Shown here: positions 11,880-60,473 of the stretch, piece after piece
How positions within the stretch are numbered: the stretch's first letter is position 1
How the letters are laid out: each line of letters starts with the position of its first letter
Assembly (NCBI GenBank): GCA_964593865.1
Contig: CAZQKE010000135.1
Span: 9,849-73,848 of the forward strand
Direction of reading: 5' to 3'
Source of the DNA: an uncultured Anaerolineaceae bacterium
GTDB lineage: Bacteria > Chloroflexota > Anaerolineae > JAAYZQ01
Length of the DNA stretch: 64,000 nt
Program-made: the position numbers and the translations under genes
The notes under the pieces: model-generated
Seen by the model: the letters and a program-made list of their open reading frames with translations, nothing else
What the model was told of the DNA's origin: nothing
The model's database searches: none

Positions 11880-12311
11880 TCAGCGCATCCATTTGCGGAC
11901 GACAACGGTCGTCCCTTTCCCCACCTGCGACCGGATTTCAAATTCATCCATCAGGCGTTTGGTTCCCGCCAAGCCTACGCCCCGCTCCCGCCGGATCGGC
12001 GCGTTAGGGTCCATAATTCGCTCCAAATCGGGGATGCCCGGCCCTTGATCTTCACACCGGATTTCAATCCCCACCCGGCCCCTTTGCTGCAACCGGCTCA
12101 GCATGATCCGCCCATGGCGGGCATAGAGCAAGGCATTACGGGCCAGCTCCGAGATGGCGGTGGCGATCCGCGCCTGGTCAATGATGCCAAAGCCCAACTC
12201 TTTGGCCAGATTCCGCCCTTCGATCCGCGCCGCGACGATGTCCAAATCGCTGTGCAGCGGAATACACCTGTTATCCGAGTCGGTTTTCCCCACCGGCAAG
12301 TTGGTGCTCAA
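11880..12311 (-). CDS. rsbT: RsbT-like anti-sigma regulatory Ser/Thr kinase
   Basis: DIVAARIEGRNLAKELGF, ATAISELARN, DQGPGI, GVGLAGTKRLMDEFEIRS..GKGTTV; start uncertain (TTG 12311 after GAGGGG). Confidence 0.85.
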   Translation of the reverse strand: MSTNLPVGKTDSDNRCIPLHSDLDIVAARIEGRNLAKELGFGIIDQARIATAISELARNALLYARHGRIMLSRLQQRGRVGIEIRCEDQGPGIPDLERIMDPNAPIRRERGVGLAGTKRLMDEFEIRSQVGKGTTVVVRKWMR

Positions 12312-54895: not shown

Positions 54896-55146
54896 CGCGG
54901 ATCGGCAGAGCCGCGGATCAACGGAAATTCGCGGATTTCGGTGCACGATGCCGTGTAGTCTGAGGCGAAGGGGCGCGGGTTTCGCTGCAACCTGCGTCTT
55001 GCCACAACCCGTGGTTCCGATCCCACCCGCGTCTTCCCACAAATCCCCGGTTCAACCTTGCCTATATTATGGCAACTTTCGCAGGCGAAATCCGCGTCCT
55101 TCCACAATCCGTGGTTCCAATCCCATCCGCGTCTTTGGTTTCAACC
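54896..55146. repeat. Intergenic block of heptamer repeats and a duplicated ~55-65 bp unit
   Basis: CGCGGAT at 54896, 54912, 54930; inverted ATCCG(C/T)G at 55090, 55107, 55125; 54992-55057 resembles 55092-55146. Confidence 0.7.
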
Positions 55147-55159
55147 GTTTGAGAGAACC

Positions 55160-57526
55160 ATGAAACAGTATTTCCCGGTGTTCGGCGCGTTGGCGGTCAT
55201 CACCCTGGCTTTGGGCCTGGCCCTGCACCCCCTGGCCGTGGACGACGCCTTCATCACCTACCGCTACGCCTATAACCTGGCGCACGGGCAGGGCTTTGTC
55301 TACAACCCCGGTCGCCCGGTGCTGAGCACCACCGCCCCTCTGTGGGCCTTGATCCTGGCGGCGGGGGCATGGTTGGGCGCGGACCTGCCCGCCCTGGCCA
55401 ACGCCCTCTCGGCGGTCGCCGTGGGCATGGCCGCCCTGTGCCTCTTTGCCCTGGGCCGCCGCGAAGGGACCCCCCGGCCGGGCGCATTGGCCGCCCTGTT
55501 CTACGCCCTCCATCCCCTCCTGTGGCTGACGCTGGGCCTGGAAACGGCGGCTTTCCTGGCCCTGGCCCTGGCCGCCGTCCTGGCCTACCGGAGCGGGCGG
55601 CTCTACCTGACCGCCGTGCTGCTGGCCCTGGCGACCCTCACCCGCGCCGACGGCCTGGTCCTGGCCGCCGTCCTGGTCGTTGATTTCTGCCGTGCGAACC
55701 TGCAACGTGCGCCCCTGCGGTTGAACCCCCAAGGCCCCAAGCGGGGGTTGGGCGCGGCGGCCCTCTATCTCGCCGTGATGCTGCCCTTGCTGGCCTGGCT
55801 GACCCGGCAGTTCGGCTCCCCTCTGCCCGCGACCCTCGCCGCCAAACGCGCCCAGGCCGCATTGGGCATCACCGGCTTTTACGCCCACACCACCTACCTG
55901 CAAGGGTTGGGCGTCCTGGGCCGCGCCCGCCTGGCCCAAACGCCCCTCTACTTCCTCATCCCGCCGACGCTGCTCCTGGGCCTGGTGGCCCTCCTGCGAC
56001 GCGGCGCAGCGGGGGCGAAGGGGCGCACAGCCTCCCCCGGCCGCACCTCTGCGGGAGGGTACGGCTGGGTATGGCTCCTCCTCGCTTGGGGGGCGGCCCA
56101 CCTGGTCGGCTATGCCATCCTCGGCGTGACGCCCTACTACTGGTACTATGCGCCGCTGCTGCCGGGGATCGTAGGGCTGTTGGCGGTGGGCGTGGGGACG
56201 TTGGGAACGGGAACCTGGGAGACGGGGAAAGCGGGGAGTTGGGTGCGAGTGGCCTGGACCGGGTTGTTGGTCGCCACCTTCCTCCGGTCCGATGGGATGA
56301 TGGTGCGGGCGTTGACGGGGCCGGTCCCGCCGCCGGAGGAGCCGCTCAGCAAGGCGTTGCCGGAGGCCAAAGGGGATATTTACGAGCGGGCGGGCCGCTG
56401 GCTGCGCGAGAACACGCCCGCCGGGGCATTGGTCGGCGTGACCGAGGTGGGCATCCTGGGCTACTACAGCCAACGGCCCATGGTGGATTTCCTGGGGCTG
56501 CTGGAACCGGATGTGGCCGAGGCGTTGGCGCGGGGGGACCTGGTCTGGGCATTGCTCCACTACCAGCCCGACTATCTGGTCCTGACCGCCCTTTCCCCCC
56601 TCTATGCCTATGACCTGCGGGCCGACCCCTGGTTCCAGGCGGCCTATGCCCCGGTCCAAACTTTTGACGACCCGCGCTTTTGGGGATCGCCCCTGACGGT
56701 CTACCGACGGCAAGGGGAGCGCATCCCGCTGCCGGAAGGGGAAGGGGGGGAACTGCCCGACGAGGCGATCCCCCTGGAGGCCGAATTCGGCGACCAGATC
56801 CGCCTGCTGGGGGCCGTGACCGGTGCGGAAACGGCCCAACCGGGCGACATCCTGCCCCTGACCCTCTATTGGCAGGCGGAGGGGCCGGTAGAAGGCGATT
56901 ACACCGTCTTTGTCCACCTGCTGGGCCGGTACGAACGGGTGATCGCCCAGCGCGACGCCCCGCCGGGCCTGGGCGCCCGCCCGACGAGCGGTTGGACGCC
57001 GGGCCGGTTGGTGGTGGACCCCTACCTGCTGACCTTGCCCCCGGCGGTCTACACCCCCGACGAGGCGGTCTGGGAAGTGGGCCTCTACGACGCGGAGACC
57101 GGCCAACGCCTACCCCTGGCCGACGGCAGCGACCGCGTGCGCTTTGGTGCAGTGACGATCCGACCCTCCGCCGAGCCGCTGCACCTGGACTTTGGTCCCG
57201 TGGCCCTAACCGGCTACGACGTGGACCGCCTGCTCCTGGCGCCCGGCGAGACGCTCCGTGTGACGCTGGATTGGGAGGGGACGGGACCGGCGGCGGTGGC
57301 CGTGCAGTTGGTGAGCGAGGAAGGGAAGGTCGTCGTCCGCGCCGAAAGCGATTCGCCCCGGCGGACCTTTGCGCTGCAACTGCTCTCCGGCGATCCCCCC
57401 GGCGCGTATGACCTGGAGGTGCAGGTCACCGACCCGGCCACGGGGGCGACGTTACCCCTTTTGGGGGCCGACGGCCAACCCCAGGGCGACCGGGCGCGGC
57501 TGACCAAGATTCGGTTGCTCCCCTAA
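55160..57526 (+). CDS. GT-C-fold membrane glycosyltransferase with C-terminal beta-sandwich domains
   Basis: VDDAFITYRYA..L..G.G..YN, LGLET, TRADG, YYWY..P; extracellular LTLYW...YTVFVHLL repeats; start ATG 55160. Confidence 0.85.
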   Translation: MKQYFPVFGALAVITLALGLALHPLAVDDAFITYRYAYNLAHGQGFVYNPGRPVLSTTAPLWALILAAGAWLGADLPALANALSAVAVGMAALCLFALGRREGTPRPGALAALFYALHPLLWLTLGLETAAFLALALAAVLAYRSGRLYLTAVLLALATLTRADGLVLAAVLVVDFCRANLQRAPLRLNPQGPKRGLGAAALYLAVMLPLLAWLTRQFGSPLPATLAAKRAQAALGITGFYAHTTYLQGLGVLGRARLAQTPLYFLIPPTLLLGLVALLRRGAAGAKGRTASPGRTSAGGYGWVWLLLAWGAAHLVGYAILGVTPYYWYYAPLLPGIVGLLAVGVGTLGTGTWETGKAGSWVRVAWTGLLVATFLRSDGMMVRALTGPVPPPEEPLSKALPEAKGDIYERAGRWLRENTPAGALVGVTEVGILGYYSQRPMVDFLGLLEPDVAEALARGDLVWALLHYQPDYLVLTALSPLYAYDLRADPWFQAAYAPVQTFDDPRFWGSPLTVYRRQGERIPLPEGEGGELPDEAIPLEAEFGDQIRLLGAVTGAETAQPGDILPLTLYWQAEGPVEGDYTVFVHLLGRYERVIAQRDAPPGLGARPTSGWTPGRLVVDPYLLTLPPAVYTPDEAVWEVGLYDAETGQRLPLADGSDRVRFGAVTIRPSAEPLHLDFGPVALTGYDVDRLLLAPGETLRVTLDWEGTGPAAVAVQLVSEEGKVVVRAESDSPRRTFALQLLSGDPPGAYDLEVQVTDPATGATLPLLGADGQPQGDRARLTKIRLLP

Positions 57527-57530
57527 CCGC

Positions 57531-58577
57531 TCACACCAGCTCCACACCCGGCTCACCGGCCAACACCTCCCCCACCTCCCAAAAGGGTTGATCAAGGGCA
57601 GCACAGCGGGCGGCAAACCGCTCCATCTCCGATGCAGGAATGGCCGCCAGGATACCGCCGTTGGTTTGGGGATCGTGGCAGAGCATGACAAACTCATCGG
57701 AAAGGGCCGGATCCACCGTTACCCACCGGCCGAAGTACTTTTCGTTGGCCGCTGCACCGCCGGGGAAAAGCCATTGCTCCGCATAGATCCGCGCCGCCTC
57801 CTGGATCGGGATGCGCTCCGCATAAAAGCGCAAGCGCACCCGACCGGCACGGGCCATCTCTACGGCGTGGCCCAACAACCCAAACCCGGTAACATCCGTC
57901 ACCCCACGACCGGAGGTGGCATGGACGGCGGCCACGGCATCACGGTTGAGGCGCAACATCCAGCGGGTCGCTTCCTCCAACGCTTCCGGCGAGCCTTGAT
58001 CGGCGCGGCAAGCGGTAGTAATGACGCCGGAACCGAGGGGCTTGGTCAGCACCAAACGTTCGCCGGGACGTGCCCCCCCTTTGAGCAGCAACGTGGAGGT
58101 TGTAACGGTCCCCAGCACGACCAAGCCGTATTTCGGCTCTTTATCGTCCATTGTGTGCCCACCGGCAACCAGCACCCCGGCCTCACGCGCTTTATCCCGC
58201 CCGCCACGCAGGATGTCGCTGGCAATGTGGGAAGGCATATCGGCAGGGAAGGAAGAAAGGTTCAGGGCAAGGAAGGGCGTCCCGCCCATCGCATACACAT
58301 CGCTGATTGAGTTGGCCGCGGCTATCGCGCCGTACGTGTAGCCATCATCCACCACCGGCGCAAAAAAGTCGGTGGTGACGACCAACATGGTATCATCGTT
58401 CAAGCGATAAACCACAGCATCATCCGGCTCATCCAGGCCGACGATAATGCGTTTATCGGCATGTACCTCTTTGAGCAAAGGGCGCAGCACCTGCGCCAGG
58501 GCCTCTGGGGCCAGTTTGCCTGCTCAACCCGCACAAGAGGCGATCTTGGTCAGGCGGGTGAAATCCCGTTTGGCCAT
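57531..58577 (-). CDS. selD: Selenide, water dikinase (selenophosphate synthetase), Sec-containing form (UGA at codon 18)
   Basis: AAGGAGG SD; MAKRDFTRLTKIASCAG-U-AGKL in frame with the ORF-track fragment; DDAVVY, TTDFF, AANSISDVYAMGG, GGHT, LTKPLG.G, TDVTGFGLLGH, DPQT.GG. Confidence 0.95.
58481..58526 (-). promoter_or_regulatory. Candidate bacterial SECIS of selD
   Basis: After UGA (58526-58524): perfect stem GGCGCAG/CUGCGCC with GUG loop, 33 nt from UGA. Confidence 0.65.
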
Positions 58578-58608
58578 CGCCGATCCTCCTTTCCGGTTCG
58601 GTCGTGGT

Positions 58609-58644
58609 AAATACAAAACCGCCGTCGGCCCACGCCGACGGCGG
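58609..58644 (-). terminator. Strong intrinsic terminator in the selD leader
   Basis: 11 bp perfect stem CCGCCGTCGGC/GCCGACGGCGG, GTGG loop, then TTTTGTATTT, about 30 nt before the selD start. Confidence 0.85.
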
Positions 58645-58666
58645 CAGGAGGACGCGCCCCAGAGCC

Positions 58667-58774
58667 TTAGGGAGCGGTTCCGTCACCGTTCTTTGGCGTG
58701 CGCCGACCGGTTCGCGGGCGCAACCCGGCGCCCCCGACCTCACCTCAAGTCTGACAACAATGCATCGCAAACAT
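58667..58774 (-). CDS. Putative Sec-containing leader peptide (35 aa) of selD
   Basis: GGAGGGGAGAGG then ATG 58774; MFAMHCCQT-U(TGA 58747-58745)-GEVGGAGLRPRTGRRTPKNGDGTAP-TAA; SECIS-like hairpin 58716-58733. Confidence 0.6.
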
Positions 58775-58813
58775 ACGAACCTCTCCCCTCCATGCCTCTC
58801 ACGAGCAGGCCCC

Positions 58814-58842
58814 AGTATACCAAAAGCGGAACGGTAGGGCAA
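58814..58842 (-). promoter_or_regulatory. Promoter of the selD leader
   Basis: Minus strand TTGCCC (58842-58837), 17 bp, TG-extended TATACT (58819-58814). Confidence 0.7.
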
Positions 58843-58864
58843 GTCCAAACAGGCGAAAGGCCAT

Positions 58865-58893
58865 TTGCCTTCTGGCGCAAAAAGGGCTATAAT
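58865..58893 (+). promoter_or_regulatory. Promoter of the LCP gene (divergent from selD)
   Basis: TTGCCT (58865-58870), 17 bp, TATAAT (58888-58893). Confidence 0.7.
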
Positions 58894-58946
58894 AACCTTG
58901 TAGATTCAGACCTGCCTCCACCAGGCAGGGATCGAAAGAGCAGTAT

Positions 58947-60473
58947 GTGAACAGGAATCGCAGATCAACCAATGAGAAACCACCCCAGGACCGTTTGACG
59001 CCGGCCCTTATCGGTGTTGCCTTGATCCTGGCATGTATCGTCACCGCCCTGGGAATCGGCCTCTTGCGGGCCGAGGACGGACCGACAGACGACTTGGCCG
59101 CTCTGGCCACCGACCCGGCGCGGGCCATCGTCATCCCCACCGTCCCTACCCTGCCGGTGACGCCCACACCCCCACCCATCACCCCGCCACCTTGCACACC
59201 TCCGGCCGACTGGCAGACCCACACGGTCCAAGAAGGAGACACCCTCTTTGCCCTGGCCCAGACCTACGACTCCGACATAGAATCTCTGCAAAGGGCTAAC
59301 TGCCTAGACAACGACATCATCCGCGTCGGCCAGGAACTGTTCGTCCCCGATCCTACCTACCGTCCTCCCCCGGCAGGGGCAACCGGCTCCGGCCCGACCT
59401 ATACCACATCGGCCAACCGCTACCTCAACATCGCCCTGCTGGGTTCCGACAAGAGGCCGAATAGCCCAACCTGGAGGACAGACACTATCATCGTCGTCTC
59501 CCTGGACATGGACCGCAACCTGGTCCGCCTGCTTTCCATCCCCCGCGACCTATGGGTGAACATCCCCGGCCACGGGCCGGACCGGATCAACACCGCCGAC
59601 CTGTGGGGCGAGATGGATCACAAGGGAGGCGGACCGGAGCTGGTCAAGCAAACCATCTACCAAAATCTGGGGATTCCCATCCACTACTGGGTCCGCGTAG
59701 ATTTTGACGGCTTCAAGCGGATCATTGATGCAGTCGGTGGCGTAGATGTAGATGTGGAATGCCCTCTGCCCGACATCGGCCTGGAAACGGGGGTCCAACA
59801 CATGGACGGCGAGATGGCATTGTGGTACGCCCGCTCGCGCATGACGACCAACGATTTTGACCGAAGCCGTCGCCAGCGCAAGCTCCTGATGGCCCTTTGG
59901 GAGCAAGCCCTCAACCCCGGCATCATCCCCCAAATCCCCACCCTGCTGGCGACGATGAACGATGCCGTCCAAACCGACCTACCGCCCGATCAGATCATCG
60001 CCTTGGCCATGCTGGGGCTGAAACTCCGGCCCAACCAAATCTTTAGCCAATCCATCGGCCCGTGGCAGGTCCAAAACTGGACGACACCGGGCGGCGCGGA
60101 GGTCCTGTTACCCCTCCACGACAAGATCAAAGAGCTGCTAGATAGCTTCTACGGACCGATAGATCTGGATTTCCTGGAGAGGGTGAGTCGGACGACGGTC
60201 GCCGTCCAAAACGGGACCTCGCGTCCGGAGGCAGGGCAACTGGCGATCAGCAACCTCCACTGGGCAGGCTTCCAAGTCCACGATGCCGGCCCGGCCCCCA
60301 CCCCCACGGCCCTTTCCCAGGTCATCGTCTACAACGCCGAACAGGACATCGCCGAATTGGTCGCCATTTCTCTGGACTTGATGCCTTCCTCTTTGTCATA
60401 CCGGCCCGATCCCAACGGCGAAACCGACATCTTGGTCGTGCTGGGCGAAGACTACGATCCCTGCCGCCGCTGA
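58947..60473 (+). CDS. LCP (LytR-CpsA-Psr) protein with LysM and LytR_C domains
   Basis: One TM; LysM HTVQEGDTLFALA..Y...N.L..D.I.VGQ.L; NIALLGSD, RTDTI, LSIPRD, R.R....DF.R.RRQ; C-terminal VQNGT..LytR_C. Confidence 0.93.
   Translation: MNRNRRSTNEKPPQDRLTPALIGVALILACIVTALGIGLLRAEDGPTDDLAALATDPARAIVIPTVPTLPVTPTPPPITPPPCTPPADWQTHTVQEGDTLFALAQTYDSDIESLQRANCLDNDIIRVGQELFVPDPTYRPPPAGATGSGPTYTTSANRYLNIALLGSDKRPNSPTWRTDTIIVVSLDMDRNLVRLLSIPRDLWVNIPGHGPDRINTADLWGEMDHKGGGPELVKQTIYQNLGIPIHYWVRVDFDGFKRIIDAVGGVDVDVECPLPDIGLETGVQHMDGEMALWYARSRMTTNDFDRSRRQRKLLMALWEQALNPGIIPQIPTLLATMNDAVQTDLPPDQIIALAMLGLKLRPNQIFSQSIGPWQVQNWTTPGGAEVLLPLHDKIKELLDSFYGPIDLDFLERVSRTTVAVQNGTSRPEAGQLAISNLHWAGFQVHDAGPAPTPTALSQVIVYNAEQDIAELVAISLDLMPSSLSYRPDPNGETDILVVLGEDYDPCRR

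Follow-up and report, generated by a model that had tools for sequence, protein, structure and literature searches.

The regulation of selenium metabolism in bacteria is poorly understood. The elements described are the translational operator of the Escherichia coli selAB genes and LysR_Se, a predicted regulator of selenium metabolism (PMC5322559). The selAB element resembles a selenocysteine insertion sequence (SECIS) and lies in the 5'-untranslated region (5'-UTR). Studied by Thanbichler and Böck, it is untranslated, contains no UGA, is situated 3 nucleotides (nt) from the Shine-Dalgarno (SD) box of selA and represses translation initiation (PMC13449736). The trp, his, leu, thr and pheA attenuators of enterobacteria have a short open reading frame (ORF) near the promoter, in which the regulatory codons lie. 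Their four segments pair in mutually exclusive ways, as 1:2, 2:3 (antiterminator) and 3:4 (intrinsic terminator), and a ribosome that waits at the regulatory codon sits on region 1. What is sensed is an aminoacyl-tRNA whose supply depends on the controlled genes. Here we consider the leader of the selD gene in an uncultured Anaerolineaceae bacterium, at positions 58609-58842 of a 64,000-nt stretch of contig CAZQKE010000135.1 (the whole stretch is called the window below). It is very probably the first cis-acting bacterial selenium-status sensor to be described: recoding of a stop codon to selenocysteine (Sec) in a leader ORF would be the sensing event, coupled to an antiterminator and a terminator and controlling a selenium-acquisition regulon (yedE, yedF, csd, the Se/S carrier gene and selD) in a clade of Anaerolineae.

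The preliminary description of this leader, made from the window alone, interpreted it as a Sec-sensing attenuator. All the elements that it listed (promoter, SD box, upstream ORF (uORF) with UGA, hairpin, 25 further codons, antiterminator arm, terminator and selD) were found where it had placed them, and its interpretation is supported by three comparisons with related leaders, concerning the UGA of the uORF, the hairpin and the covariation of the antiterminator. It also knew of no earlier UGA-leader transcription attenuator. Likewise, we found no description of an attenuator with a UGA/SECIS leader in the open-access full-text literature searched, including a comparative genomic paper on selenium genes (PMC5322559), although such absence is not proof.

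The leader family and its genes

Alignment A4 comprises 34 distinct leader sequences from metagenome-assembled genomes (MAGs) of Anaerolineae and from metagenomes. They were collected by a SelD-anchored scan of genomes, one per species, by a scan of metagenomes with a DNA pattern, from covariance-model matches beyond the pattern, and from contigs of SelD homologues. The SelD-anchored scan produced 23 loci, all but two labelled as Anaerolineae or other Chloroflexota MAGs, and in five of them the same leader was recognised by eye. The pattern is 37 nt long, covers only the UGA and the hairpin, and is expected 0.00 times in shuffles of the window. It has 27 exact matches in the metagenome collection. 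The whole architecture is present in 26 of these, including the parts outside the pattern, that is, the SD box, the in-frame start, the frame after the UGA, the antiterminator and the terminator; the 27th falls within an unrelated gene. The arrangement is not due to chance.

The covariance model, built on the 111-nt core of the leader, finds exactly one copy in the window (58664-58774) and no second one; a weak match at 11895-11915, at the end of a coding region, was rejected as a chance hit. The model adds more divergent copies upstream of yedE in four loci (L005, L007, L011, L013) and second copies in L035 and L037. The leader is also borne by the contigs with the closest homologues of the window SelD, including L051/L052 (87% SelD identity). 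No leader was found by the model in the selD loci of the Bellilinea type (L063-L065) and in L014, L015, L021 and L022. The yedE-yedF-selD loci of the 52-56% SelD clade (L017-L020, L023), where the 3-kb flank ends inside the operon, are outside the counts of leader presence and absence.

Wherever it can be read, the gene downstream of the leader is a selenium-operon gene (selD, yedE, yedF, a class-V aminotransferase or the Se/S carrier). In most loci the first one is the gene of the YedE selenium transporter (TIGR04112, 477 bits). The selD gene comes first in the window, L001/L053, L003/L058, L004, L008, L040, L051 and L060, and a third group of first genes encodes class-V aminotransferases of the cysteine desulfurase or selenocysteine lyase type; in L035 and L037 the leader is followed first by the inserted nucleotidyltransferase cassette described below. 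The operons headed by the leader contain, in varying order, yedE, yedF/TusA, Aminotran_5, the Se/S-carrier protein (DUF3343), the long YedF (TIGR03527) and selD. Since the leader generally heads operons of selenium uptake and activation, it behaves as would be expected of a selenium-status sensor.

In the window the regulated gene is selD, encoding selenide, water dikinase (minus strand, 58577-57531, ATG at 58577, SD box AGGAGG at 58590-58585); its match to TIGR00476 scores 317 bits (cut-off, 125). The gene also encodes a selenoprotein, with an in-frame Sec UGA at codon 18 (58526-58524, SCAG-U-AGK), and thus the leader regulator and its target would both depend on Sec decoding. A candidate SECIS of selD, GGCGCAG-GUG-CUGCGCC, is located at approximately 58481-58497 on the minus strand, with the loop at nt 37-39 from the selD UGA. 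As for the decoding machinery of the host, the window contains, in addition to the UGA in selD, a tRNA-Sec gene with anticodon tca (minus strand, 10512-10416, identified by ARAGORN); both indicate that the organism decodes Sec. Neither selA nor selB was found in the part of the window examined, and neither is adjacent to tRNA-Sec, whose neighbours encode an O-antigen-ligase-like protein and an alpha/beta hydrolase.

Conserved elements of the leader

All elements of the window leader lie on the minus strand. The first is a sigma-70-type promoter, TTGCCC-17 nt-TATACT, whose -10 hexamer is preceded by TG (58842-58814), one of only two promoter-like sites within 3.5 kb; by visual inspection of the sequences, relatives including L051, L003 and L004 have comparable promoters at an equal upstream distance. 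An independent promoter between the terminator and selD had been named in the preliminary description as an observation that would refute it, as had a lack of conservation of the uORF UGA or of the pairings; no promoter-like site was seen in this interval in a sequence scan, and the UGA and the pairings are conserved, as shown below. Between the promoter and the first structural gene there is a short SD-led ORF with the candidate regulatory codon. Its purine-rich SD box GGAGGGGAGAGG (58791-58780) stands 5 nt before the ATG at 58774. The ORF, MFAMHCCQT-U-GEVGGAGLRPRTGRRTPKNGDGTAP (58774-58667), consists of nine codons, the in-frame UGA at codon 10 (58747-58745), which is the proposed sensing codon, 25 further codons and the stop codon TAA (58669-58667).

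Conservation of the uORF UGA, the first of the three comparisons, is complete: it is present in 34 of 34 unique leaders, and the base following it varies (G in 28, U in four, A in two). Of the 31 complete leaders, 30 have an ATG or GTG start in the frame of the UGA behind an SD-like motif; the start lies 7, 9 or 10 codons ahead of the UGA, depending on the leader. After the UGA, frame 0 is open up to a stop at a conserved position in all 34 leaders, reached after 25 codons in most of them and after 27 in L025. Stops interrupt frame +1 in 18 leaders and frame +2 in 12. Seven leaders (L024, L030, L036, both copies of L037, L038, L039) have an in-frame 24-nt insertion. It is situated between regions 2a and 2b of the antiterminator (for example, AGGCUUCGACCAGGCUCAGCCCAG), adds eight codons after the UGA and parts the duplicated CCAG from the G-run.

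The peptide itself is not conserved, the window having HCCQTU versus HHRRTU in relatives, and residues encoded across the hairpin change along with compensatory base changes. As the peptide varies while the RNA pairings and the frame hold, what appears to be under selection is the RNA together with its translation, and the decoding event rather than its product. The uORF could in principle be an independent gene for a small selenoprotein of 35 amino acids with a CxxU redox motif and its own terminator, selD being transcribed from elsewhere. Small selenoproteins with CxxU motifs exist, and the window peptide does contain C-Q-T-U, which the preliminary description had listed as a feature. However, this motif is incidental, as it occurs only in the window, and the relatives that read HHRRTU lack it. 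Moreover, amino acid changes follow the RNA pairing (GAGWRP, GTGWCP, DAGWRP), antiterminator and terminator covary, no promoter separates the terminator from selD, and the leader always heads selenium operons. This reading was rejected, neither peptide nor redox motif being conserved; we regard it as extremely improbable.

A SECIS-like hairpin (58739-58709) follows the UGA. Its lower stem is formed by GGUCG (58739-58735) and CGAACC (58714-58709), the upper stem by GGGCGC (58733-58728) and GCGCCC (58721-58716), and the loop is CGGGUU. The hairpin stands directly 3' of the in-frame UGA of an SD-led ORF in the window and in 34 of 34 leaders, and RNAalifold recovers it unguided. Conservation of this element, the second comparison, is evident from its stem, in which 93.9% of cells are paired and six pairs show compensatory changes. 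In E. coli, the upper stem-loop of the SECIS occupies nt 15-31, 11 nt after the UGA; G23 and U24 are loop positions, and U17 is bulged (PMC8659212). With positions counted from the U of the UGA, the upper stem here starts at nt 15 (the first paired G), 11 nt after the UGA, in all 34 leaders. The apical loop is GGUU in 27 leaders, G23 is present in 34 of 34 and U24 in 27 of 34; the 6-nt loop of the window contains G23, G24 and U25. The fit to the bacterial SECIS model proposed from the window alone therefore holds for the position and the loop (nt 15, G23) and fails for the bulged U17, in place of which there is a single unpaired G on the 3' side. The hairpin is a candidate SelB-binding site.

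A conserved SECIS-like hairpin with SelB recognition features is also what would be expected of a decoding-free riboregulator. In that case SelB, with or without Sec-tRNA(Sec), would bind the nascent hairpin and shift the balance between the 1:2b pairing described below, the antiterminator and the terminator, the uORF and the UGA being incidental. The SECIS-like element of the E. coli selAB 5'-UTR provides a precedent for SelB acting on a leader (PMC13449736). However, the UGA is invariant, is spaced exactly as decoding requires and always shares its frame with an SD-led start; the downstream frame and stop are conserved, and the insertion is in frame as well. A protein-binding site would require none of this. 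We consider such a riboregulator improbable. A translational operator of the selAB type was rejected, because the hairpin follows an in-frame UGA in a uORF and is far from the SD box of selD.

Between the leader ORF and the structural gene there is an intrinsic terminator (58645-58609) with a G+C-rich stem of 12 base pairs (bp) at 58645-58618, a GUGG loop and the U-tract UUUUGUAUUU. In the 34 leaders 98.1% of its cells are paired, and five pairs are compensatory. The 5' strand of the candidate antiterminator, CACGCC-AAAGA-ACGGUG (58700-58684), comprises regions 2a and 2b. It is complementary over 12 bp, one G-U pair among them, to CGCCGU-C-GGCGUG (58643-58631), that is, to the top of the terminator 5' arm and the terminator loop. 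Family-wide, the partner of 2a is the upper part of the terminator 5' arm together with the loop (3b), with 95.0% of cells paired and four of seven pairs compensatory; for example, one pair is A-U in 19 leaders and G-C in eight. Region 2b pairs with the lower 5' arm (3a; 92.4% paired). The antiterminator as a whole has 14 pairs (93.7% paired), and its four compensatory pairs share columns with the terminator 5' arm. These columns covary with two different partners, which is a signature of mutually exclusive structures. The third comparison thus also bears out the preliminary description: double changes in four of the seven 2a:3b pairs track changes in the terminator 5' arm.

None of the shuffles or slid controls attains the observed percentage of pairing, the number of cells changed on both sides or the covariation score of the antiterminator, and sliding the partner by one or two columns reduces pairing to about 26-33%. 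In the window, the antiterminator duplex has an energy of -18.7 kcal/mol, reached by nine of 200 shuffles. An additional pairing of 2a with the segment just after the uORF stop (2a:2') is paired in only 72% and was not retained. Folding of the window leader alone gave z = -1.28, which is uninformative given the G+C-rich RNA. The Rfam covariance models found nothing relevant at 57000-60000 with E <= 10, the one miRNA match elsewhere being at noise level.

Two further pairings involve region 2b. Firstly, uORF codons 5-8 of every relative (CAUCACCGCC or CACCACCGCC) are complementary to 2b, with which they could form an anti-antiterminator. This pairing has an energy of -18 to -28 kcal/mol, with a mean z of -2.1 versus shuffles, and is similar in strength to the antiterminator; 88.6% of its cells are paired, and its register moves by three nucleotides between subfamilies. 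Region 1 occupies positions -15 to -4 from the UGA, within the footprint of a ribosome with the UGA in the A site; in the window it corresponds to uORF codons 5-9 (58762-58748). The predicted layout of leaders with the region 1 pairing is trp-like, with 1:2, 2:3 and 3:4. In the window copy the 1:2b pairing is degenerate (-7.2 kcal/mol, no better than shuffles). Secondly, 2b may form a local hairpin, H2, with the last codons of the uORF, ending at its stop (58693-58670 in the window, where it is weak, 4+2 bp). H2 is an RNAalifold consensus structure with 94.8% pairing on alignment A2; the pair in columns 105/112 is U-A in 16 leaders and C-G in 16, and the 3' strand includes the U and G of the uORF stop codon. 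The two-state model of the preliminary description lacks both the 1:2b pairing and the H2 hairpin of most relatives. It may nevertheless be right for the window copy, since the region 1 pairing there has decayed to the level of shuffles.

A UCCUCCU motif (58652-58646) directly precedes the terminator, and CCUCC is found at this position in most leaders. The motif is complementary to SD sequences, namely those of the uORF and of selD, and no pairing with a partner could be established. One subfamily has a small variable hairpin with this motif as its 5' arm. The motif might add a layer of translational control or lengthen the antiterminator.

An A+U-richer analogue of the leader, missed by the covariance model, was observed upstream of yedE in one locus (L059:1303-1535). 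It has an SD box, an ATG, seven codons, CGA ACC TGA, then the hairpin CCUGCA-CGGGA-UGCAGG, and 32 codons after the UGA ending in UCC UCC UAA, which resembles an anti-SD sequence. No obvious intrinsic terminator is present. Before the SD box of yedE, GAUAACGUCG can pair with CGACGUUAUC and, in a mutually exclusive manner, GUUAUCAGG with CCUGAUAAC. From this single sequence, the analogue may combine the same sensor with another expression platform, and the sensor formed by the SD box, the uORF, CGA ACC UGA and the hairpin may be modular.

Direction of the switch

We think it fairly likely that the leader is a ribosome-mediated leader-peptide transcription attenuator with a Sec UGA as the regulatory codon, providing negative feedback of the Sec-decoding capacity. 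Transcription would begin at the 58842-58814 promoter, and a ribosome would load on the uORF and arrive at the UGA in codon 10. The hairpin 11 nt past the UGA would serve as a SECIS and recruit SelB with Sec-tRNA(Sec). When Sec-tRNA(Sec) is abundant, Sec would be inserted at the UGA, and the ribosome would translate 25 further codons across 2a and 2b to the stop just beyond them. A ribosome on or just past this region would separate the antiterminator strand from the terminator 5' arm, so that the terminator would form and selD (in relatives, the yedE-yedF-csd-selD operons) would not be transcribed. When Sec-tRNA(Sec) is scarce, the ribosome would wait or terminate at the UGA, upstream of both antiterminator strands; 2a and 2b would then capture the 5' arm and loop of the terminator ahead of the synthesis of its 3' arm, and RNA polymerase would read through. 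In most relatives the ribosome at the UGA would also cover region 1, which otherwise would capture 2b, and an untranslated leader with the region 1 pairing would be terminated, as in the trp operon. In this manner the Sec-decoding capacity would feed back negatively on selenium uptake and activation, and selenium limitation would switch the genes on.

This direction is favoured for several reasons. Firstly, the antiterminator strands would lie on opposite sides of a read-through ribosome at the uORF stop, which should prevent their pairing. Secondly, the ribosome at the UGA sits upstream of both strands and in most leaders masks region 1. Thirdly, the targets supply selenium for Sec-tRNA(Sec), as in amino acid attenuators. 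Finally, ribosome-mask equilibrium folding was applied both to full-length leaders and to transcripts without the terminator 3' arm, and in the truncated window transcript the pairing of the terminator 5' arm with region 2 rises from 0.38 without a ribosome to 0.51 when one is placed at the UGA, and is 0.00 when it is placed at the uORF stop.

The same sensor might have the opposite sign, with UGA read-through turning the genes on, so that selenium would induce selenium genes in a positive feedback. Without Sec, the ribosome would be released at the UGA, and region 1 or H2 would sequester 2b, allowing the terminator to form. With Sec, the ribosome would melt H2 and sit on its 3' strand at the stop, leaving 2a and the 5' part of 2b free for the terminator 5' arm. 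Several observations fit this scheme. H2 is an unbiased consensus hairpin with an equal exchange of U-A and C-G (16 versus 16) and with the uORF stop in its 3' strand. The terminator probability falls with a ribosome at the stop in L002, L035, L037, L040, L044, L045 and L027. Since SelD is a selenoprotein, its mRNA would be useless without Sec. The divergent leader of L059 ends in the anti-SD-like UCCUCCUAA. However, the antiterminator would have to form around the ribosome, with its strands on either side of the stop; 2b is partly within the footprint of the ribosome at the stop; region 1, which is then uncovered, competes for 2b at a similar energy; and in the window a ribosome at the stop abolishes the antiterminator pairing. 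Besides, where a toxic element is taken up, end-product repression is more usual than positive feedback. We regard the opposite sign, the main rival of the favoured scheme, as rather unlikely.

Several points weigh against the attenuator with negative feedback. The pattern and the model used for collection include the UGA and the hairpin, and the invariance of both is therefore somewhat circular, although the ten leaders found only via the model or via SelD are less affected. Many of the 34 leaders are closely related. The G+C-rich repeats (GGCGG/CCGCC) permit many alternative pairings, and for this reason only helices supported by covariation can be trusted. The bulged U17 of E. coli is absent, nt 17 being a paired G in 33 of 34 leaders. 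Equilibrium folding with the ribosome masked at the UGA versus the stop gave no consistent sign across the family. H2 would compete with the antiterminator while the ribosome stays at the UGA. If release factor 2 (RF2) acts quickly at the UGA, region 1 would be freed, and leaders with the region 1 pairing would be terminated under selenium limitation as well. Lastly, Sec insertion, SelB binding and termination are steps that we infer.

Genomic surroundings and known systems

The other promoter-like site near the leader, TTGCCT-17-TATAAT (58865-58893, plus strand), is divergent and drives a gene with LysM, LytR_cpsA_psr and LytR_C domains (58947-60470, plus strand), so that both promoters occupy one intergenic region. 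Downstream of selD, at 55058-57526, two long ORFs of 822 (plus strand) and 679 (minus strand) amino acids overlap on opposite strands; neither has a Pfam match.

Some leader-headed operons appear to have been rearranged. In L035:780-1704 and L037:631-1918, two leader copies flank an inserted nucleotidyltransferase gene (Polbeta/NTP_transf_2). In L035 the aminotransferase gene comes directly after the second copy; L037 has a second small ORF behind the nucleotidyltransferase gene, and its contig stops short of the next gene. The arrangement resembles the insertion of a toxin-antitoxin-like cassette into the operon, accompanied by duplication of the leader. In L002:2645-2896, and also in L054-L056, an 83-codon yedE remnant is located between the leader and selD. 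Its N-terminal 77 residues are 80% identical to full-length YedE, which suggests that most of yedE, as well as yedF, was deleted, bringing selD under direct control of the leader.

In L014, an Anaerolineae MAG whose SelD is 70% identical, the leaderless selD is preceded by a divergent gene of the LysR family (L014:158-1099, minus strand of the locus). The best match of this gene is the LysR family of selenium metabolism (LysR_Sec_metab), with 226 bits, below the cut-off of 250 bits. It looks like an alternative regulatory solution. The Bellilinea-type selD loci have neither the leader nor a LysR_Sec_metab-like regulator.

If the proposed mechanism is true, cells gauge their capacity for decoding Sec directly on the ribosome and feed it back on selenium uptake and activation. 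Leader-peptide attenuation would then extend to a recoded stop codon, and a SECIS could have a purely regulatory role. The leader would be a compact genetic part responding to selenium or Sec-tRNA. It would also offer a natural system in which the competition of SelB and RF2 at a UGA could be followed by a transcriptional read-out.

The E. coli selAB element and the selD leader both have a SECIS-type hairpin in a leader that would serve feedback in the Sec pathway and report the state of SelB and Sec-tRNA(Sec). The two differ in that the selD-leader hairpin stands behind the in-frame UGA of a translated uORF, coupled to an antiterminator and a terminator; in that it is about 120 nt from the SD box of selD, with the terminator in between; and in that the targets are selD, yedE and csd, and not selAB. 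In comparison with bacterial SECIS elements such as that of E. coli fdhF, the hairpin is likewise situated directly 3' of an in-frame UGA, starts at nt 15 and has G23 and usually U24. Unlike the fdhF element, it has no bulged U17 and is part of a 35-codon leader encoding an unconserved peptide.

In the tryptophanase operon leader tnaC, too, the state of the ribosome at a UGA in a short leader ORF decides whether transcription proceeds into the operon. There, however, the UGA is a true stop codon, at which RF2 is blocked by free tryptophan and the nascent peptide, and the terminator depends on Rho, whereas the UGA of the selD leader is proposed to be recoded, and its terminator is intrinsic with an RNA antiterminator. 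T-box riboswitches are similar in that transcription attenuation reports the charging or availability of one tRNA upstream of genes supplying the respective amino acid. A T-box binds the uncharged tRNA directly, without translation, whereas the selD leader, which has no T-box features and no Rfam match, would read the tRNA via the ribosome.

By its sequence, the leader has the structural hallmarks of leader-peptide attenuators, and the closest parallel in layout is with those of the trp type. It shares with them the promoter-proximal short ORF with a candidate regulatory codon, the mutually exclusive 2:3 and 3:4 pairings, and target genes that would supply the sensed aminoacyl-tRNA. The full layout of four segments, with region 1 beneath a ribosome waiting at that codon, is predicted for the relatives, although the window copy has lost the 1:2 pairing. 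Unlike in trp-type attenuators, the regulatory codon is a single stop recoded as Sec, which needs a SECIS within the leader and a dedicated factor, SelB; failure to decode it can be RF2-mediated termination rather than a simple stall; and the leader ORF runs 25 codons beyond the sensing codon and is accompanied by the additional hairpin H2.

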